Origin: a virus
Taxonomy: Duplodnaviria > Heunggongvirae > Uroviricota > Caudoviricetes
Length of the DNA: 14,514 nucleotides
IMG/VR virus record: IMGVR_UViG_2660238462_000002
Direction: 5' to 3' (one strand)
Shown: one piece after another, positions 4,205 to 14,514 of the stretch
Position numbering within the stretch: the first letter of the stretch is position 1
Layout of the letters: each line of letters starts with the position of its first letter
Position numbers and translations under genes: made by a program
Notes under the pieces: model-generated
Database searches by the model: none
What the model was told of the DNA's origin: nothing
The model's input: only the letters and a program-made list of their open reading frames with translations

Positions 4205-4396
4205 TTAAAGACCTGCCGGGATTTCGATATTATCCTGGTGAATAACTTTATCGACCGGGTAACAGTTACCGGGAATTTTCTGTTCGGTTGCTGCAGTCAT
4301 ACACTCCTGCATTGTCCTGTGAACACTGACTGCAATATCAACTGGCTCTCCGGAAACAAGAAAAACTGTCAGAACAAGCACAAATGCTGAATTCAT
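4205..4396 (-). CDS. ydfD: Small secreted/membrane protein with N-terminal signal peptide (63 aa), YdfD-like by position
   Basis: MNSAFVLVLTVFLVSG hydrophobic N-terminus; AAGGA 8 nt upstream of ATG 4396; start overlaps the dicB-like stop. Gene symbol is by position downstream of dicB as in Qin. Confidence 0.55.
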   Translation of the reverse strand: MNSAFVLVLTVFLVSGEPVDIAVSVHRTMQECMTAATEQKIPGNCYPVDKVIHQDNIEIPAGL

Positions 4397-4581
4397 TGTG
4401 CACATCCTTTTGGCATCAGACGTAAACGAGCCAGCATTGAAACAATGCATATTTTATTTAATAGCTCCCGTTCTTGTTTTCTCTTGTTAATGGCATCTTC
4501 AGTAAATACTGGGTTACTGATAGTGACACCAATTTCAAAACAACCTTCAGACGTATTAACGTTTGGTAATAACGTTTTCAT
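4393..4581 (-). CDS. dicB: Cell division inhibitor DicB-like (62 aa)
   Basis: Translation MKTLLPNVNTSEGCFEIGVTISNPVFTEDAINKRKQERELLNKICIVSMLARLRLMPKGCAQ matches my recollection of Qin DicB. GAGGA 8 nt upstream of ATG 4581. Lies just downstream of a DicF-like sRNA. The longer ORF starting at 4686 is rejected. Confidence 0.75.
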   Translation of the reverse strand: MKTLLPNVNTSEGCFEIGVTISNPVFTEDAINKRKQERELLNKICIVSMLARLRLMPKGCAQ

Positions 4582-4755
4582 TATCGCGTCCTCAACAATG
4601 AATTTTGTGATGCAGTGCCTGGTGCCTCCAGGTGACGTTAACCAGTTAACAATTAACGCCGGATACAGAGAATCCACCCATAACACTGTTTTTGGTTTTA
4701 ACTGTTCCGCGTGCGCTCAGCCGCATTCACCACATCACAAAATTCACTTTAAAAA

Positions 4756-4808
4756 GGGCGGCAGAGCAGTCACGGAGTAAAACTGATACCGCCAAACGTC
4801 ACCAGAAA
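4756..4808 (-). ncRNA. dicF: DicF-like small regulatory RNA (about 53 nt) with intrinsic terminator hairpin and U-tract
   Basis: Minus-strand sequence TTTCTGGTGACGTTTGGCGGTATCAGTTTTACTCCGTGACTGCTCTGCCGCCC followed by TTTTT matches recalled DicF. The 3' hairpin GGGCGGCAGAGCAG/CTGCTCTGCCGCCC is followed by the U-run at plus 4751-4755. Context is between ydfC-like and dicB-like genes, as in Qin. Confidence 0.7.
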
Positions 4809-5148
4809 ATTGATAACAGAGGGCGTTGCAGCGGGGTTGTCACTTAAGCGTATGGTCAACCTGACAACCCGGTGTCCTCAACGGGGAAGAAATAACCCCG
4901 CCATACTTACCGCCGCACCATTTCGCGGGTTGCCACAACCGGAAGCGCACGGTCGACGAAAATTTAACGACAGGCTATCTATGAACCAGCTACCTCGCCG
5001 TGCGCTTTCGCGTTATGGTCTGACTTTTCAGGGAAATATCCTTTCAGTAAACTGTCAGTGCCGGATGCTCACCCGTGTCCGGCGCACGCACTCCACCTCA
5101 CCCGTGGAGAACTCCTTAATTACCAACCTTAGCTTCGTTGGTTAGCTA

Positions 5149-5974: not shown

Positions 5975-6613
5975 TTAAATATCTTGTTGAATTTTAAAGC
6001 ATACGCCCAATATGCAAGATAGATCATCCAGCATAATTGAAGGGTAGCGAGGATTCGTGGGGACTAAAAGAATATCCGGCCCTTCTATCTCCAGTTTACG
6101 AATGACAGGTGTTGTGGTCCCTTTGGGTAAGGCAAGGACAATATTTCCTGGTTGTACGGTTCGATCGGGATCAACAAAAACTGTTGAACCATTTGGGATG
6201 GAAACTCCCCCACCAGATGTTGACATACTGTCACTCTCTAGAACAACTGCAAAGGTATTGACCGGGATTTCTCCGACAAGCTGCACACAAGAGGTTATTG
6301 AGGAATTTTTCATATAATCACTCCAGCTTGCTGCCTGCTGAAGTGATAGTAGCGGAACCGTTTTTATCGGCGGTAAAGATAGATCAAGCGAATCACCTGT
6401 ATTTAACTCTCCTCCATTAAGAAGCCAATTTTCGTTTACTTTCAATATTTTTGCCAGTGAACTTATGTAACGCGAGGACGGCGCTCCTCCACCGTTCATC
6501 CATTGACTTACGGAGCCTTTTGATGCGCCAGTGCCATTGACAAGGTCTTTGCCTTTCAGGTTTAGCGCATGCATACGTTGGGTTATGCGTTCAGATATAG
6601 TTTGCTTGCTCAT
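5975..6613 (-). CDS. CI-type prophage repressor (HTH N-terminus plus LexA/S24 peptidase-like C-terminus), 212 aa
   Basis: N-terminal helix-turn-helix region (QRMHALNLKGKDLV...GSVSQW), C-terminal S24-like region (ESDSMSTSGG ... IRKLE). Divergent from a Cro-like gene. Confidence 0.85.
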   Translation of the reverse strand: MSKQTISERITQRMHALNLKGKDLVNGTGASKGSVSQWMNGGGAPSSRYISSLAKILKVNENWLLNGGELNTGDSLDLSLPPIKTVPLLSLQQAASWSDYMKNSSITSCVQLVGEIPVNTFAVVLESDSMSTSGGGVSIPNGSTVFVDPDRTVQPGNIVLALPKGTTTPVIRKLEIEGPDILLVPTNPRYPSIMLDDLSCILGVCFKIQQDI

Positions 6614-6704
6614 GTTTTGATTTTAAAACACAGATGGTTTTGTTTCTTGACTTTCTTTGGTTTTGATTATTAAACTTTTGACGTTCAGTTTTATGGAGCG
6701 ACTC
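6614..6704. promoter_or_regulatory. Immunity region intergenic: divergent pRM/pR-like promoters and operators
   Basis: 91-bp spacer between divergent repressor and Cro-like genes. TTGACT at 6647-6652 followed 15-17 bp later by TATTAA/TTAAAC. Repeated GTTTTGATT motifs at 6614 and 6660. Confidence 0.5.
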
Positions 6705-6935
6705 ATGAAAAAATCAGAAGTATTAGGCTATTTTGGCGGAGTTGTTAAAACAGCCGCAGCTCTAGGAACGTCAAAAACCACAGTCAGCATGTGGGGGGAA
6801 GAGGTTCCGTGGAAATGGGCGTTGCTAATTCAGGCAGTCACTGCCGGGGCGCTCAAATATGAGTTACACATACCGACGGTTGTCATTCCCGGTTCTGATC
6901 ATAATCCGCCTTCTAACCAAGGGGGGGATTCATGA
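6705..6935 (+). CDS. Cro/YdaS-like HTH regulator (76 aa)
   Basis: MKKSEVLGYFGGVVKTAAALGTSKTTVSMW is a typical Cro/YdaS-type HTH. GGAG 6 nt upstream of ATG 6705. Stop overlaps the next gene start (ATGA). Confidence 0.75.
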   Translation: MKKSEVLGYFGGVVKTAAALGTSKTTVSMWGEEVPWKWALLIQAVTAGALKYELHIPTVVIPGSDHNPPSNQGGDS

Positions 6936-7357
6936 AAATCAAGCATGAACACATCCGCATGGCGATGAATGCCTGGGCGCATCCGGACGGCGAAAAAGTA
7001 CCGGCTGCGAAAATTACCAAAGCGTATTTCGAGCTGGGAATGACGTTCCCGGAACTGTATGACGACAGCCATCCGGAAGCCCTGGCTCGCAATACCCAGA
7101 AAATTTTCCGCTGGGTAGAGAAAGACACCCCTGATGCAGTTGAAAAAATTCAGGCGTTGTTACCAGCGATCGAAAAGGCAATGCCACCTTTGCTGGTGGC
7201 CAGAATGCGCAGCCACAGTTCAGCTTATTTTCGGGAGCTGGTGGAGACGCGGGAGCGACTGGTGAGAGACGCTGATGATTTTGTCGCAGTGGCAATCGCC
7301 GGTTTCAATCAGATGAACCGTGGTGGCCCGGCAGGAAATGCTGTGGCAGTACATTGA
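6932..7357 (+). CDS. YdaT-like / CII-like regulatory protein (141 aa)
   Basis: N-terminus MKIKHEHI... and size match the YdaT family as I recall it from Rac. Translationally coupled to the Cro-like gene. Confidence 0.65.
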   Translation: MKIKHEHIRMAMNAWAHPDGEKVPAAKITKAYFELGMTFPELYDDSHPEALARNTQKIFRWVEKDTPDAVEKIQALLPAIEKAMPPLLVARMRSHSSAYFRELVETRERLVRDADDFVAVAIAGFNQMNRGGPAGNAVAVH

Positions 7358-7428
7358 CTGACAATAGCCATATCGAATCGCTTCCGGCAACTCGTGAGTA
7401 AAAAGATTCGGTATCAGAAGAGGTGAGT

Positions 7429-8499
7429 ATGGCTAACGCCTGGCTCAGATTATGGCATGACATGCCAAATGACCCTAAGTGGCGAACAATTGCCAGGGTG
7501 TCAGGGCAGCCAATTGCAACAGTGATGGCAGTGTATATCCACCTCCTGGTGAGCGCGTCACGAAATGTCACGCGAGGTCACATTGATGTCACGACAGAAG
7601 ATTTGGCAAGTGCGCTCGACGTGACAGAAGAGGTAATTGATTCAATTTTGCAGACGATGCAGGGGCGGGTACTTGATGGTGATTTAATCACTGGATGGGA
7701 AAAACGCCAGGTGCTGAAAGAGGACAACGGCAATATTTCGCAAACCGCAAAATCTCCGGCAGAGCGCAAGAGGGCGCAGCGAGAGAGGGAAAGAAAGCGG
7801 GAACAAAATGGCGATTGTCACGGCGCGTCACGAAATGTCACGCACATGTCACGACGAGTCACGACAGATAAAGATACAGATAAAGATACAGATCAAGAAG
7901 ATCAAAACACTATGGTCCATGGCGTAAAAAACGCCACGAACCAGGCAGGGGATGTTCAGACCGTCAATCCTGGTCAGCCAGCAGGCACGACACCGGAAGC
8001 CGATTCAGCGTATGCGCTGAAAGCCGATTCGGGCGCTGTGCAGCAGGTGATGACCCCAAGGCCGGAGCAATCACACCAACTGCAGCAGCCTGAAGCCGAT
8101 TCCGCCATTCAGCGGGAAGCCGATCGGGTAGTCCCGGAAAACACCGGGCTGTCTGTGGGACGAGTGGATTATCCGGATGTGTTCGAACAGGTCTGGCGGG
8201 AGTACCCGTTGCGTGCCGGAGCAAACCCGAAGAAATCCGCTTTCAGTGCCTGGAAGGCCAGATTACGCGAGGGGGTGCCACCAGAGGCCATGCTGGATGG
8301 CGTGAGGCGTTACGCAAGATACTTGGCGGCTACCGGGAAAACGGGAACGGAATTTGTTCAGCGAGCGACGACGTTTTTTGGACCGGACCGGAATTTTGAG
8401 AACCCCTGGTTGCTCCCGGTAAGCGGCACGAACAACCAGCGTTGTGTGAATCATATTTCTGAACCGGATACCGAAATTCCACCGGGCTTCAGGGGGTAA
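7429..8499 (+). CDS. Phage replication initiation / replisome-organizer protein (O-like), 356 aa, with embedded origin iterons
   Basis: GAGG 5 nt upstream of ATG 7429. Two clusters of GTCACG direct repeats at helical-turn spacing lie inside the gene, followed by an AT-rich tandem repeat, as for lambda ori inside O. Call is by position and architecture. Confidence 0.7.
   Translation: MANAWLRLWHDMPNDPKWRTIARVSGQPIATVMAVYIHLLVSASRNVTRGHIDVTTEDLASALDVTEEVIDSILQTMQGRVLDGDLITGWEKRQVLKEDNGNISQTAKSPAERKRAQRERERKREQNGDCHGASRNVTHMSRRVTTDKDTDKDTDQEDQNTMVHGVKNATNQAGDVQTVNPGQPAGTTPEADSAYALKADSGAVQQVMTPRPEQSHQLQQPEADSAIQREADRVVPENTGLSVGRVDYPDVFEQVWREYPLRAGANPKKSAFSAWKARLREGVPPEAMLDGVRRYARYLAATGKTGTEFVQRATTFFGPDRNFENPWLLPVSGTNNQRCVNHISEPDTEIPPGFRG
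7557..7593. repeat. Iteron cluster 1: four GTCAC(G/A) direct repeats at 10-11 bp spacing
   Basis: GTCACG at 7557, 7567, 7588 and GTCACA at 7577. Shares the 19-mer GCGTCACGAAATGTCACGC with cluster 2. Confidence 0.8.
7817..7890. repeat. Iteron cluster 2 (five GTCACG repeats, 10-11 bp spacing) plus adjacent AT-rich tandem repeat GATAAAGATACA x2; putative ori
   Basis: GTCACG at 7817, 7827, 7837, 7848, 7858, followed by GATAAAGATACAGATAAAGATACAGAT at 7865-7890. Confidence 0.8.
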
Positions 8500-8539
8500 G
8501 TGTTGATTTCTGGTCATGAGGTAATTTTCAGGAGGGCTT

Positions 8540-8962
8540 GTGGCAAAAGTTTTTACACAAGAAGAGCGAGAAAAAATTAAAGGGCAGGTTGTTGAACTCG
8601 TACGCCAGAGTGGGCGTGAGACGTTACGGCAACTGGAAGTCAAGACAGGTGCGACAAGATATCTGATGAGCGTTCTCGCAAGAGAGCTGGTTGCCAGCGG
8701 CGATGTATACAACTCCGGCTACGGGTTATTCCCCTCTGAACAGGCGCGTAAGGACTGGCAAAACGCCCGCAAAAAACTCTCGAGGGCAAAGGTGAAGAAA
8801 CCTGCTGTGGTTGATCCGGACCTTATCTGGTCATCACCTGACGGAGAAATACGTCGCTACGACAGTCGCCTAAACATAATCTGTCGCGAGTGCCGGAAGA
8901 GTGAAGCTATGCAGCGTGTACTGGCTTTCTATCAGGGTAATTTTCAGGAGGCGGTACTGTGA
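8540..8962 (+). CDS. Hypothetical protein (140 aa), GTG start
   Basis: AGGAGG 4 nt upstream of GTG 8540. No recognisable motif beyond a C-terminal CRECRK. Stop abuts the next ORF. Confidence 0.55.
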   Translation: MAKVFTQEEREKIKGQVVELVRQSGRETLRQLEVKTGATRYLMSVLARELVASGDVYNSGYGLFPSEQARKDWQNARKKLSRAKVKKPAVVDPDLIWSSPDGEIRRYDSRLNIICRECRKSEAMQRVLAFYQGNFQEAVL

Positions 8963-9019
8963 GTGAAATTAGCTATCAGGCTTCAATTACCGCTGGCATT
9001 CGCATCAAAGGAGAGGAGC

Positions 9020-9376
9020 ATGGAAATAAAACCAGAGGATGAGTTAAGCAATATCGTTTTATTTCCGGTAAAAGAGGATGACCCTCGTAATCAGGTTAAT
9101 TTTCTTTATGAGCCATCGGAAAGACCATATTGTCATCACGCCTCTGTCCGGGTTGACGAAAAAGAGCGTCAGGTCCGCTGTAAAATCTGCGGTGCAGTTG
9201 TGGAGCCATTTGACTGGATGCTCTCTGTGGCGAAAAGAGAAACCAGACTGGCAGATGATGTAAGGCTCTTGCGTCAGGAGGAGCGGGAAAGGCGAAAAAA
9301 TATAGAAAAGCTAATTCAGATTGAGCGTAACGCGAAAGCGCGGATACGCAGGGCGACAAAATCCAGAACTGAATAA
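9020..9376 (+). CDS. Hypothetical zinc-ribbon protein (118 aa; 137 aa if the GTG at 8963 is used)
   Basis: GGAGAGGAG SD 5-7 nt upstream of ATG 9020. Motif YCHH...(13)...CKIC followed by a basic, coiled-coil-like tail (RLLRQEERERRKNIEKLIQIERNAKARIRR). Confidence 0.55.
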   Translation: MEIKPEDELSNIVLFPVKEDDPRNQVNFLYEPSERPYCHHASVRVDEKERQVRCKICGAVVEPFDWMLSVAKRETRLADDVRLLRQEERERRKNIEKLIQIERNAKARIRRATKSRTE

Positions 9377-9469
9377 TTAAATTTAGCTCTGTTAAAAATT
9401 TAATCCTTAACCGGAGGGATTTCTGCACCCTCAGAACATCAGGAGGCCGCCCGAAAGGGCGGTAGTTAA

Positions 9470-9652
9470 ATGCGAAAGTTTAAAATAATTATTGAAACGG
9501 GAATAGCCGGTGGAGATTTCGAGGATGAATTCGAAGTGGATGATGATGCGACGCCTGATGAAATACATGACGAAGCAAAAGATATTTTCTTTAACTACTG
9601 CAATTACTCATATCACGAAATAAAAGACGAAGAGGAAGAACAAAATGGCTGA
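9470..9652 (+). CDS. Small highly acidic protein (60 aa, about 20 Asp/Glu against 5 Lys/Arg)
   Basis: ORF in an AT-rich segment; AGGAGG at 9441-9446 is separated from the ATG by a GC hairpin (9447-9462). Net charge about -15. Confidence 0.5.
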   Translation: MRKFKIIIETGIAGGDFEDEFEVDDDATPDEIHDEAKDIFFNYCNYSYHEIKDEEEEQNG

Positions 9653-9821
9653 TTTTGGTTCAACTAAATACAACGTCAGTTTTGAAGAATGGCATGAACT
9701 GTTAATGGACTATGCAGAGTTACGTGGTGGCAGTGCTGCTGATGCTGAAGCATGGCGTGATGATTATGAAGCAGGAAAAACTCCGGTCGAAGCATATTGT
9801 GATGAGTGGGGCGATGAATGA
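9645..9821 (+). CDS. Small acidic protein (58 aa), overlapping the upstream gene (ATGGCTGA)
   Basis: Hand-translated: MADFGSTKYNVSFEEWHELLMDYAELRGGSAADAEAWRDDYEAGKTPVEAYCDEWGDE. About 16 acidic against 4 basic residues. Start overlaps the stop of the 60-aa gene and its stop overlaps the next ATG (ATGA). Confidence 0.5.
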   Translation: MADFGSTKYNVSFEEWHELLMDYAELRGGSAADAEAWRDDYEAGKTPVEAYCDEWGDE

Positions 9822-10075
9822 GCGAGGTTAATTATCAGGAAGGGCATGAAACGGCGGGGCAAGCAAAAACAGTGGCATGGCGATATCGCTACGTGAAAAA
9901 AAAGGCGTTACGGACTTTCAGGGGAAGTAGTGGTCTGGTGACTGGAAATATGTACCGAAAAAAGAGGATTGTAACGACAGGCCGAACTATGAAATTCAGG
10001 CCTTATTCACTGCCCCGCCAGTCCCGGTTACATCAGAAGAACTGGTTAAAGCTGTGCACTTTTATGAACAACTAA
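9818..10075 (+). pseudogene. Possible disrupted or frameshift-dependent ORF; the protein-like C-terminal part is in the -1 frame, ending at 10134
   Basis: The frame from ATG 9818 looks protein-like at first, then turns basic and low-complexity. The -1 frame from 9930 to 10134 reads as good protein (WSGDWKYVPKKEDCNDRPNYEIQALFTAPPVPVTSEELVKAVHFYEQLKRENPPASGNLITDSQIRQ) but has no start codon. Two A_AAA_AAG heptamers lie in the 0 frame at 9898-9904 and 9958-9964. Confidence 0.3.
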
Positions 10076-10304
10076 AACGCGAAAATCCACCAGCATCCGG
10101 AAACCTGATTACAGATTCCCAGATAAGGCAATGAGCTACCTGGCGCAGAACGGGCTGATAAGTATGGGGAATGTTTTACGATGAATATTTAGACTAAAGA
10201 GTTTGTAACGCTATGTAAGTGATTTTTTCTGGTTTAGATATTTATATGTCCGGCCAAATTGAGGTGTGTTTAAATGTAATTGCACATTGATTGTAGGAGG
10301 AATA

Positions 10305-10484: not shown

Positions 10485-10686
10485 ATACAGCGAACGCCAT
10501 TGGTTTAGTTGGATATTTACTGTGCCGGACAAAAACGGTTTGCGGGGAAATCTTAGTTAAGTAGAATGACTGCGGGTGCTTGAGGCTATCTGTCTCAGGC
10601 ATGAACACCAAAAGGCAGATAGAGAAAAGCCCCAGTTAACATTACGCGTCCTGCAAGACGCTTAACATTAATCTGAGGCCATATCT

Positions 10687-10746
10687 ATGCGACACATAGA
10701 GATTAGCCTCTTACGGACCGAAAGGTCAAGGAGAAGCAGGCTATGA
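10687..10746 (+). CDS. Short leader ORF (19 codons) ending at the hok start codon; possible mok-like coupling ORF
   Basis: ATG 10687 with GAGG 9 nt upstream; its TGA stop overlaps the hok ATG (ATGA). Canonical mok is longer and overlaps hok, so this is tentative. Confidence 0.3.
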   Translation: MRHIEISLLRTERSRRSRL

Positions 10747-10898
10747 AGCAGCAAAAGGCGATGTTAATCGCCCTGATCGTCATCTGTTTAACCGTCATAG
10801 TGACGGCACTGGTAACGAGGAAAGACCTCTGCGAGGTACGAATCCGAACCGGCCAGACGGAGGTCGCTGTCTTCACAGCTTACGAACCTGAGGAGTAA
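10743..10898 (+). CDS. hok: Hok/Gef-family type I toxin (51 aa)
   Basis: MKQQKAMLIALIVICLTVIVTALVTRKDLCEVRIRTGQTEVAVFTAYEPEE has the Hok/Gef family signature (transmembrane helix, then RKDLCEV...TEVAVFTAYE) and appears identical or nearly so to HokD/RelF as I recall it. Absent from the ORF track because it is under 60 aa. Confidence 0.85.
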   Translation: MKQQKAMLIALIVICLTVIVTALVTRKDLCEVRIRTGQTEVAVFTAYEPEE

Positions 10899-12395: not shown

Positions 12396-12412
12396 TTTTG
12401 TGGAGTAAGTTG

Positions 12413-12461
12413 ATGCGTGATATTCAGATGGTTCTTGAGCGTTGGGGAGCGTGGGCGGCTA
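12413..12461 (+). CDS. Antitermination protein Q-like, 5' fragment only (16 codons), interrupted by the N run
   Basis: GGAG 7 nt upstream of ATG 12413. MRDIQMVLERWGAWAA matches the N-terminus of lambdoid Q-family proteins (Qin quuQ-like) as recalled. The reading frame runs into N at 12462. Confidence 0.65.
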
Positions 12462-12471
12462 NNNNNNNNNN
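12462..12471. other. Run of 10 ambiguous bases (N): assembly gap or masked sequence
   Basis: Seen directly in the sequence. It separates the prophage Q fragment from the asnB 3' flank. Confidence 0.99.
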
Positions 12472-12802
12472 TCTTTTTTTTCGCGATACCTTATCGGCGT
12501 TGCGGGGCGCATTATGCGTATAGAGCCTTGCAGCGTCAACCTCTTTTTCAAGGAAAATTGCTCGAAAGTGACTGTTTGGTTAGGTTGCGAACAGCGTGGC
12601 GCTATATTCGTCAATTATTGTTTACTTTGTGTTTTTTCCCACCCTACAGCCATTCTTTTGTCATACAGGATGAAATTCGGAATTTAACAATAGTGGTGGG
12701 AAATTAATCTATGAAATACTGGCCTACAGTGATGAGTTGTCAAACAGTGATGTGGCAAACCCGGAACATTTCCTTACTGCATATCAGAATCAACAAGCAC
12801 CT

Positions 12803-12849: not shown

Positions 12850-14514
12850 TTACTTATACGCCGACTGGTGAACACCAACCGCGCGACCAGACGGATCGTC
12901 CATTTTCTTGAACGCTTCATCCCATTCGATCGCTTTAGCGGAAGAACAAGCGACGGAAGGACCGCCCGGCACGCACTCAGCGGCGCTCGGAAGCGGGAAT
13001 AGTTCTTCAAAGATCTCCCGATACAAGTACGCTTCTTTAGAGGTTGGCGTGTTGTACGGGAAGCGGAAGCGGGCAGTTTCCAGTTGCTGATCAGAAACCT
13101 GCTGCGCAGCCACTTCTTTCAGGGTGTCGATCCAACTGTAACCGACGCCATCGGAGAACTGCTCTTTCTGCCGCCAGGCCACGCTTGCAGGCAGATACGC
13201 TTCAAAACATTCACGCAGGATGTGTTTTTCCATTTTGCCGTTACCGCACATTTTATCCTGTGGGTTAATACGCATCGCCACATCAAGGAATTTTTTGTCG
13301 AGGAACGGAACGCGTGCTTCCACGCCCCAGGCTGACATCGCTTTGTTGGCACGCGCGCAGTCATACATATGCAGGGCCAGCAGTTTACGCACCGTCTCTT
13401 CATGCAGTTCTTTGGCATTCGGTGCTTTGTGGAAGTAAAGATAACCGCCGAACACTTCATCAGAACCTTCACCGGACAGCACCATTTTAATGCCCATCGC
13501 CTTGATCTTACGCGACATTAAATACATCGGTGTTGAAGCGCGAATAGTGGTCACATCATAAGTTTCGATGTGGTAAATCACGTCGCGGATGGCATCCAGA
13601 CCTTCCTGTACAGTGAAGTGAATTTCGTGATGCACCGTGCCCAGATGGTTTGCCACTTCCTGGGCTGCTTTCAGATCCGGTGAACCCGGCAGACCTACAG
13701 CAAAGGAGTGTAACTGCGGCCACCAGGCTTCAGAGCGTTCCTGATCTTCCACGCGACGGGCTGCGTATTTCTTGGTGATAGCGGAAATAATTGAGGAATC
13801 CAGACCACCAGAAAGCAGCACACCGTAAGGCACATCAGACATCAGATGGCTTTTAACTGAATCTTCCAGTGCCTGACGCAGCTCGTTTTTGTCGGTCACG
13901 TTATCTTTCACCGCATCGTAGTCGAACCAGTCGCGATGATAGTAAGAACGGATTTCGCCGTCCTGGCTCCACAAATAGCTCCCCGCCGGGAACTCTTTAA
14001 TCGTGCGGCAAACTGGCACCAGCGCTTTCATTTCTGAGGCCACATACAGCTGACCGTGTTCGTCATACCCCATATACAGTGGGATGATCCCCAGATGGTC
14101 GCGACCAATCAGGTAGGCATCTTTTTCGCTGTCGTACAGTGCAAAGGCAAACATGCCCTGCAAGTCGTCGAGAAATTCCGGCCCTTTTTCCTGATACAGC
14201 GCGAGGATCACTTCACAGTCAGACCCGGTCTGGAACTGGTAACGATCGCCATATTCGGCGCGCAATGCCTGGTGGTTGTAGATTTCACCGTTTACCGCCA
14301 GTACGTGGGTTTTTTGTTGGTTGTAGAGAGGTTGCGCCCCCGCGTTAACGTCAACAATTGACAGACGTTCGTGGGCGAGAATGGCGTTATCGCTGGCATA
14401 AATACCGGACCAGTCCGGGCCACGATGACGCATCAGGCGTGACAGCTCGAGGGCTTTCTTACGCAGCTCAACTGCGTCTGTTTTGATATCGAATACGCCA
14501 AAAATTGAACACAT
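12850..14514 (-). CDS. asnB: Asparagine synthetase B (glutamine-hydrolysing), complete 554 aa
   Basis: N-terminal MCSIFGV (class II amidotransferase with Cys2), SGGLDSS PP-loop motif, full-length enterobacterial AsnB sequence. Start codon is at the last three bases of the window. Confidence 0.97.
   Translation of the reverse strand: MCSIFGVFDIKTDAVELRKKALELSRLMRHRGPDWSGIYASDNAILAHERLSIVDVNAGAQPLYNQQKTHVLAVNGEIYNHQALRAEYGDRYQFQTGSDCEVILALYQEKGPEFLDDLQGMFAFALYDSEKDAYLIGRDHLGIIPLYMGYDEHGQLYVASEMKALVPVCRTIKEFPAGSYLWSQDGEIRSYYHRDWFDYDAVKDNVTDKNELRQALEDSVKSHLMSDVPYGVLLSGGLDSSIISAITKKYAARRVEDQERSEAWWPQLHSFAVGLPGSPDLKAAQEVANHLGTVHHEIHFTVQEGLDAIRDVIYHIETYDVTTIRASTPMYLMSRKIKAMGIKMVLSGEGSDEVFGGYLYFHKAPNAKELHEETVRKLLALHMYDCARANKAMSAWGVEARVPFLDKKFLDVAMRINPQDKMCGNGKMEKHILRECFEAYLPASVAWRQKEQFSDGVGYSWIDTLKEVAAQQVSDQQLETARFRFPYNTPTSKEAYLYREIFEELFPLPSAAECVPGGPSVACSSAKAIEWDEAFKKMDDPSGRAVGVHQSAYK

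Follow-up and report, generated by a model that had tools for sequence, protein, structure and literature searches.

Do the two small genes that follow the replication initiator of a lambdoid prophage form a coupled unit, or do they only stand side by side? The question is raised by IMG/VR virus record IMGVR_UViG_2660238462_000002, a stretch of 14,514 nucleotides (nt) that was analysed as a whole and is referred to here as the window; it is a lambdoid (Qin/Rac-like) Escherichia coli prophage. A reading made from the DNA alone (the sequence-only reading) had described a 140-amino-acid (aa) open reading frame (ORF), here gene A, abutted by a second ORF for a zinc-ribbon protein, here gene B, and had proposed a coupled gene pair acting either as an unusual replication accessory or as unrelated cargo, such as an effector with its partner. 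Our analysis points to another answer, which we consider probable: although A and B are neighbours among the delayed-early genes of the prophage, they are inherited independently, and their junction is a mosaic one produced by module shuffling. Both genes belong to catalogued families, and as a coupled pair the locus would be unimportant, a common mosaic joint in E. coli prophages. The elements that define the two genes are the following.

8530-8535, plus strand: Shine-Dalgarno (SD) sequence AGGAGG of gene A, 4 nt upstream of its GTG
8540-8962, plus strand: gene A, 140 aa, GTG start, stop TGA 8960-8962; DUF977 / PHROG 142, Ren-like
9010-9018, plus strand: SD sequence GGAGAGGAG of gene B, found with B in every genomic context examined
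9020-9376, plus strand: gene B, 118 aa, ATG start; PHROG 1621 (phrog_1621, 1.8e-56), a RefSeq coding sequence

The boundary and the inheritance of genes A and B

The GTG-initiated ORF of gene A with its strong SD sequence, as first proposed, is also what RefSeq gives, with an identical ORF in CFT073 labelled DUF977 family protein. The second ORF can be opened mechanically at GTG 8963, directly behind the TGA of gene A, and then codes for 137 aa. However, the true start of gene B is almost certainly ATG 9020. RefSeq places it, by homology, at the equivalent position, and 19 homologues, down to 44% identity, all begin at the residue of this codon with ME/MT...E-x-ELSNVV-FP. Furthermore, DNA identity with Shiga toxin (Stx) phages that have B in another context begins only at about 8991-8992. 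Since B starts at ATG 9020, A and B do not abut but lie 57 nt apart, and neither the overlap nor the abutment of stop and start that mark direct translational coupling was found between them.

The distribution of the genes was assessed by megablast against 5,426 complete E. coli genomes. Gene A was present in 4,038 of them, about three quarters, at 6,183 places, and gene B in 1,679, at 2,136 places, while the A-B junction (301-nt probe, at least 80% coverage) was recovered from 966. The junction is missing from about three quarters of the A-bearing and from more than 40% of the B-bearing genomes. In a curated phage collection B occurred in 21 records and A in 24, with both in 4, and in one of these four an Ea22 gene sits between them. 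In phages Tritos and HannyBb gene A is followed by other genes, without B, and Tritos has an O-like gene of the window type. In Stx phage ArgO145, B lies between two Ea22-like genes with no DUF977 gene nearby; a DUF7167 gene and a gene for a 58-aa protein are found downstream, B and DUF7167 being separated by an additional small gene. IMG/VR yielded 80 loci with a near-identical B. Roughly half of them have A immediately upstream, in approximately a quarter another gene, often Ea22-like, intervenes between A and B, and in a handful an Ea22-like gene precedes B and no A is seen within the 4 kb shown. Most of the 80 loci carry DUF7167 and the 58-aa gene after B at fixed spacing, as does the window:

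9470-9652, plus strand: DUF7167 gene (Pfam DUF7167, 7.9e-15; phrog_1997)
9645-9821, plus strand: 58-aa gene (phrog_519), downstream of the DUF7167 gene

Outside Escherichia and Shigella, DUF977 was found in none of 12 loci within the scanned 3.5 kb upstream of B (at least 2.9 kb of flank); these came from Erwinia, Yersinia, Photorhabdus, Phytobacter and others, and two short contigs could not be assessed. At these loci B mostly stands after NinG/Rap (often with an ATGA overlap), RusA, HNH or DUF968 and before the antiterminator gene Q. In a further B subfamily, B is immediately upstream of RusA, NinG or HNH (confirmed for RusA and HNH), while distant members are found among small early genes by PAPS-reductase, methyltransferase or VRR-NUC genes, and others upstream of a likely terminase and portal. 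The stable companions of B are the small genes downstream and, more loosely, DNA-processing genes, not DUF977. As a side observation, in loci L093-L105, from other Enterobacterales, B is usually ATGA-coupled to a NinG/Rap, RusA or HNH gene and directly precedes Q, a neighbourhood more consistent than that of B in E. coli.

Given the 4,038 and 1,679 genomes that carry them, together with diverged homologues that retain their motifs, A and B are real genes and not chance ORFs. The co-inheritance expected of an obligate two-gene system was not observed. As most A occur without B, more than 40% of B-bearing genomes have no junction and B of other genera never stands beside DUF977, A is not the partner of B. 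The description of a coupled pair thus gave way to separate inheritance in phages, in E. coli genomes and in other genera. Of the suggestion of unrelated cargo one half held, in that B appears as mobile cargo with a build plausible for binding nucleic acid or protein, while A did not qualify as its partner.

Gene A, a Ren-family gene

Gene A belongs to the Ren family; within DUF977/PHROG 142 it is an ordinary member, and in the prophage it is the closing gene of the replication module. It matches Pfam DUF977 (PF06163) with 98.5 bits (4.2e-28, cutoff 22.1), residues 1-136 being aligned to model positions 1-134 of 134, and phrog_142 at 2.3e-47, well inside the membership threshold. The label of PHROG 142 is 'Ren-like exclusion protein', in the class moron/host takeover. 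For lambda Ren (from NC_001416) the match to this PHROG is at 1.6e-41, and both proteins match it over their full length. The overall identity of A and Ren is 26%. By BLASTP it rises to 60% over 20 aa of the Ren C-terminus (E 4e-7), and the alignment spans the N-terminal domain and the C-terminal motif, with NIICRECRKSEAMQRVLAFY against NLVFKECRQSAAMKRVLAVY. The motif common to the two C-termini is N-x4-ECRxSxxMxRVLxxY, at residues ~99-136 of A, and homologues of A that have diverged to 25-50% identity keep the conserved motifs.

An AlphaFold2 model of A, built from a shallow alignment, predicts a winged helix at residues 7-64 with a predicted local distance difference test (pLDDT) score above 90. 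The model continues with a basic helix at 67-86 and disorder at 84-110, and it has a small helical motif at the C-terminus. Foldseek matched winged helices of the ArsR/MarR/GntR type, with probability ~1.0 and weak E-values. Ren shares the winged-helix N-terminus and the C-terminal motif, but it is a protein of 96 aa, compared with 140 aa for A, where residues 65-100 add a basic helix and a disordered insert.

Both genes also occupy the same place in the rightward early operon, right behind the final replication gene. Gene A begins 40 nt beyond a single O-like gene, while lambda ren comes after P and overlaps it. Comparison of 73 copies of A in the examined loci revealed a sharp division within the protein. 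The N-terminal domain falls into at least eight alleles, with overall identity down to 49%, while the last 45 residues form a single cluster. The gene directly before these copies is O-like (phrog_3729 or phrog_391), DnaC-like (phrog_50), P-like (phrog_109) or phrog_630. Since A occupies the position of Ren with or without an encoded DnaC-like or P-like loader, it is no substitute for a loader.

Lambda ren mutants are sensitive to Rex exclusion. This phenotype may not apply to gene A, as there is no rexAB in the immunity region of the prophage (no rexAB-like genes beside the repressor were found among the window ORFs). In addition, a preprint, in which two-hybrid contacts of the Rex proteins with O and Ren are reported, describes lambda Ren as 'likely involved in DNA replication'. 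Gene A would be placed as a Ren-like accessory that acts on or beside replication proteins, or shields the phage from exclusion, and not as a helicase loader. Its allele-variable winged helix would recognise a module-specific partner, either a DNA site or a replication protein, and its invariant C-terminal motif would contact a constant one. Ren-family proteins, although about three in four complete E. coli genomes carry them, are still without a mechanism.

Two labels encountered in connection with DUF977 were set aside. The ydaW gene of the K-12 Rac prophage was considered as a candidate DUF977 gene; the annotated K-12 YdaW (186 aa) has no BLAST similarity to A and corresponds instead to a phrog_630 double winged-helix gene (locus L131, ydaW 4253-4813), a type that in some modules sits between the replication genes and DUF977. 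A preprint has reported that ydaW blocks a retron toxin. Since YdaW is phrog_630 and not DUF977, published ydaW phenotypes cannot be transferred to gene A. The name 'LygF', attached to many phage DUF977 records, is an ORF label from Salmonella genome announcements for which no functional data were found.

Gene B, a widespread family with a zinc ribbon

The zinc ribbon and the Arg/Lys/Glu-rich helical tail seen in the second protein by the sequence-only reading were both corroborated. With residues numbered from ATG 9020, gene B codes for three conserved elements.

9035-9067, plus strand: residues 6-16, N-terminal linear motif E-x-ELSNVV-FP, in an acidic low-confidence region (pLDDT ~50)
9131-9190, plus strand: residues 38-57, zinc site C38-x-H40...C54-x-x-C57, conserved ligands
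9206-9370, plus strand: residues 63-117, one long basic helix ending in near-invariant LIQIERNAKARIR (AlphaFold2, pLDDT 80-93)

Residues E6, L9, N11, F15 and P16 of the first motif are invariant in 19 homologues, and distant relatives retain the consensus NV-x-x-FP. The ligands C38, H40, C54 and C57 are likewise invariant in the 19 homologues; among 58 distant sequences C38, C54 and C57 remain invariant and H40 is conserved in at least 90%. AlphaFold2 places a beta zinc ribbon at residues ~38-61, followed by the single predicted helix of 55 residues, and overall the model has a pLDDT of 74.6, with an acidic N-terminus of low confidence. The isoelectric point of this tail is 11.1. In the homologues the helix ends as LRxEExxRRxNIEKLIQIERNAKARIR. 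Relatives at 25-35% identity keep the zinc ligands, R50, L98, N104 and R108; of these, L98, N104 and R108 reach at least 90% conservation family-wide. The N-terminal motif was also considered as a beta-clamp-binding peptide and rejected by eye, the fourth position not being a conserved hydrophobic residue family-wide.

Family membership is clear, with phrog_1621 covering residues 1-117, i.e. B end to end, and with the zinc ligands and the ERNAKARIR helix motif in place. A profile search of 1.84 billion cluster representatives returned 1,514 relatives at E of 1e-3 or lower, 219 of them at 1e-10 or lower, which corresponds to ~1,500 clusters at 50% identity. All 58 diverse members examined match PHROG 1621 and PHROG 8538, and 57 match PHROG 4865; these families all bear the label 'unknown function' and have no Pfam model. 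Searched against Pfam, the 58 members gave only sub-threshold zinc-ribbon and coiled-coil noise. The sole Pfam resemblance of B itself is to Zn_Ribbon_TF, below threshold (21.6 bits against a cutoff of 29), and PDB sequence and fold searches yielded only a generic zinc ribbon and coiled coils, the best Foldseek match being the TFIIB zinc ribbon (1pft, E 0.17). Zinc ribbons of TFIIB (PF08271) and of the S27e type have the same small beta fold as B, with ligand pairs ~14 residues apart. However, the first knuckle is CxxC in TFIIB and CxH in B, and the 55-residue helix of B has no counterpart in TFIIB. The resemblance is therefore one of fold only, and B is not a member of the TFIIB-type family PF08271. 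Scans of viral contigs with two distant relatives of B gave no matches, and a literature search by accession or PHROG number found no reports. Gene B is thus a member of a large, conserved and uncharacterised phage family without a Pfam entry, and its clear motifs and simple architecture make it an easy biochemical target.

Among longer relatives of B, no domain fusions other than with Ead_Ea22 were found. In P0242 and P0002 a complete Ead_Ea22 domain is joined in frame to B, and in P0043 an Ea22 N-domain is fused to it, while gene B alone has no Ead_Ea22 match. The fusion with the complete domain is the only hint on the function of B that domain fusions provide. In addition, P0040 and P0041 fuse the N-terminal part of B to DUF977, and P0138 fuses DUF977 to Hok. 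These rare chimeric ORFs are probably products of recombination or frameshift and mostly constitute single-member clusters.

In the reading preferred here, gene B is the first gene of a mobile accessory module made up of B, DUF7167 and the 58-aa gene. In other settings the module follows Ea22-like genes or is flanked by junction-nuclease genes and Q. Judging from architecture and neighbourhood, it is possible, and we put it forward tentatively, that B dimerises as a coiled coil and that its zinc ribbon, together with the end of the basic helix, contacts nucleic acid or else a conserved host factor of replication or transcription. The N-terminal peptide would then be a second docking site, and the protein would have a role in processing of phage DNA or in early-to-late control. 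A broader alternative, which we find unlikely, is that B represents a widespread unnamed class of early proteins of temperate phages that hit one universally conserved host machine or DNA structure. Its fixed build would be an NV-x-FP peptide, a CxH/CxxC ribbon and a long helix ending in ERNAKARIR, and B could, for example, act with NinG, RusA and HNH junction nucleases on DNA processing or on the early-to-late transition. In E. coli, the arrangement of A, a short intervening ORF (see below) and B could in addition allow translation to be relayed from the Ren-like gene.

The junction, competing explanations and the prophage setting

Two features of the DNA bear on how A and B came together.

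8959-9042, plus strand: ORF of 27 codons, VSEISYQASITAGIRIKGEEHGNKTRG and a stop, overlapping the A stop (GTGA) and the SD sequence and start of B
8520-8535 and 8936-8951, plus strand: 16-nt exact direct repeat GGTAATTTTCAGGAGG, before A (where it contains AGGAGG) and inside the conserved 3' end of A

The short ORF ends 20 nt inside gene B. Its N-terminus, VSEISYQ, resembles the MSKIDYQ/MSRIDYQ starts of Ea22-like proteins, and its last 15 residues (AGIRIKGEEHGNKTRG) are identical to the end of ArgO145 gp18, an Ea22-like protein whose gene overlaps the start of B. Ead/Ea22-like genes (PF13935) of lambdoid and Stx phages very often stand directly before B, with their 3' end overlapping its start, and lambda Ea22 has been reported to be pro-lysogenic (PMC7093339). 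The short ORF or a one-residue variant was present at 46 of the 77 A 3'-end junctions of the loci examined; in most contexts inspected a GTG-start gene overlaps the A stop (GTGA), and the identity of this gene differs. The simplest reading of the sequence is that the ORF would be an Ea22-like gene collapsed by internal deletion, its body having been lost. An Ea22-like gene would normally lie between A and B, the internal deletion would bring B within 57 nt of A, and the joint would afterwards spread by recombination behind differing A alleles. The direct repeat may be a site of lambdoid module exchange. No stable or significant RNA structure was predicted in the gap between A and B. A translational relay from A to B through the short ORF can be proposed as a possible arrangement.

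Several observations weigh against independent inheritance and against what has been proposed for the two proteins. Approximately 58% of the B-bearing E. coli genomes do have the direct A-B junction. The distance of 57 nt is also constant behind A alleles whose identity falls to 49%, which could be a sign of selection acting on the pair instead of a single recombinant joint that has spread. With its overlap at either end, the short ORF could pass translation on from A to B, and in a rare chimera, P0040, an N-terminal portion of B is fused to the A body. On the side of function, the AlphaFold2 models have only moderate overall confidence (pLDDT ~75), and the proposal for B is drawn only from architecture and neighbourhood and is held with low confidence.

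Among the rival explanations, both genes may be counter-defence or exclusion cargo at the replication/nin boundary, A being a Ren-like protector and B independently inhibiting a factor of the host or of a prophage that serves defence or targets nucleic acids. The family label of A and the Rex sensitivity of ren mutants speak for this, as does the nature of B, a small early gene of variable accessory regions that is mobile between contexts and accompanied by tiny uncharacterised genes. However, the window repressor has no rexAB-like genes beside it, and PADLOC defence models gave no matches to A, B or the neighbouring genes, PADLOC covering defence systems and not anti-defence proteins. Moreover, the motifs of B are constant at 25-30% identity over very different phage contexts, and such constancy in a very broad family is more in keeping with a conserved housekeeping target than with a fast-evolving target in defence. 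We therefore regard this explanation, too, as improbable.

The possibility that A and B form a functional unit aiding replication, by replacing a P/DnaC-type loader or by tuning the initiator, has to be weighed together with the initiator itself.

7423-8499, plus strand: O-like initiator, 358 aa (phrog_3729, 1.8e-256), context outside the A/B pair
7557-7595 and 7816-7866: GTCACG iteron-like repeats, TGTCACGACA, five copies with ~10-bp periodicity, inside the O-like gene
8428-8499, plus strand: C-terminal tail of the O-like protein, last 24 aa GTNNQRCVNHISEPDTEIPPGFRG, resembling the extreme C-terminus of E. coli DnaT

In such a unit the winged helix of A would provide specificity for DNA or initiator, with B as the link to the helicase or primosome of the host. 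The genes do directly follow an initiator without a loader; as the sequence-only reading had noted, no match to a P- or DnaC-like loader family was found among the window ORFs scanned. Furthermore, the junction is shared by 966 E. coli genomes and retained behind divergent A alleles, the short ORF spans the A stop and B start, and the preprint mentioned above ties lambda Ren to DNA replication. However, searches of A and B against Pfam, NCBIfam, PHROGs and PDB sequences, and by fold, gave no match to loaders or primosome proteins, so that no loader homology accounts for the two genes; with lambda P, DnaC/IstB, DnaD-like proteins and DnaT they share a position after the initiator, the usual site of P or DnaC-like genes, and neither sequence nor fold. 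Gene A is found behind DnaC-like and P-like loaders as readily as behind initiators without a loader, lambda encodes P as well as Ren, and Tritos has the same O-like gene and A without B. About three quarters of the A-bearing genomes lack the junction, B relatives of other genera never adjoin DUF977, and the B copies of Stx phages are located in the opposite early arm, amid Ea22-like genes. We thus give little credence to a role of the pair as a replication accessory; the idea of a pair fails on comparative grounds and not through loader homology.

The initiator, for its part, has a DnaD-like and DnaT-like C-terminus. Its C-terminal half matches PHROGs labelled 'DnaD-like helicase loader' and 'primosomal protein', and its tail is identical to the DnaT C-terminus (PDB 6aep, 2ru8, 9zbt) at 14 of 24 positions, as counted from the printed alignment. 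The unrelated O-like type phrog_391 (locus L054) has the same DnaT-like tail. DnaT is a restart factor thought to bring DnaB/DnaC to the preprimosome. The tail may therefore mimic a host restart-primosome peptide, which could explain the absent loader gene, and the O-like initiator itself might recruit the host helicase-loader complex. The missing loader is more plausibly explained by the C-terminus of the O-like protein than by A and B. The region past the initiator thus hides no new helicase loader, and the loader function should be sought in the DnaD-like and DnaT-tail C-terminus of the initiator. Lambda ori lies within O, and by analogy the GTCACG repeats are probably origin iterons.

A toxin-antitoxin or effector-immunity pair, suggested by the small size, adjacency and common orientation of the genes and by the DNA-binding type of winged helix that A shares with many antitoxins, in a prophage that has another addiction module (hok/sok, 10574-10898), is scarcely credible, given that neither A nor B matches a toxin-antitoxin or defence family, that both lie within the pR operon without a dedicated promoter, and that they are inherited separately in most genomes, a separation that toxin and antidote would not tolerate.

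We thus return to A and B as independently inherited genes of one early operon. A single promoter-like site, at 6647-6676, and no terminator-like site were found on the plus strand of 6500-10300, and neither kind of site lies between A and B on this strand, which indicates that both genes are transcribed within the rightward (pR-type) early operon. The repressor that marks the immunity region is situated upstream:

5975-6613, minus strand: repressor gene, followed by cro-like and cII/YdaT-like genes on the plus strand

The stretch 7400-9500 is 99% identical to a CFT073 prophage inserted beside potC, and at least 80% of it was found in 679 of the complete E. coli genomes. After the 58-aa gene, the plus-strand order continues with hok/sok and then DUF968. 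RusA, the remainder of Q and all late genes of the CFT073 prophage are missing from the window; the prophage is thus either truncated near 12398-12523, or an assembly or masking joint is located there.

Some minor observations concern the rest of the window. The ORF at 12398-12523 begins like a Q antiterminator (MRDIQMVLERWGAWAA) and is broken by 10 Ns (12462-12471). Behind it, the asparagine synthetase B gene asnB occupies 12850-14514 on the minus strand. Rfam identified the sok antitoxin RNA at 10574-10898 (plus strand), with a matching hok/mok-type toxin ORF at 10743-10898, and the small RNA DicF at 4756-4807 on the minus strand.

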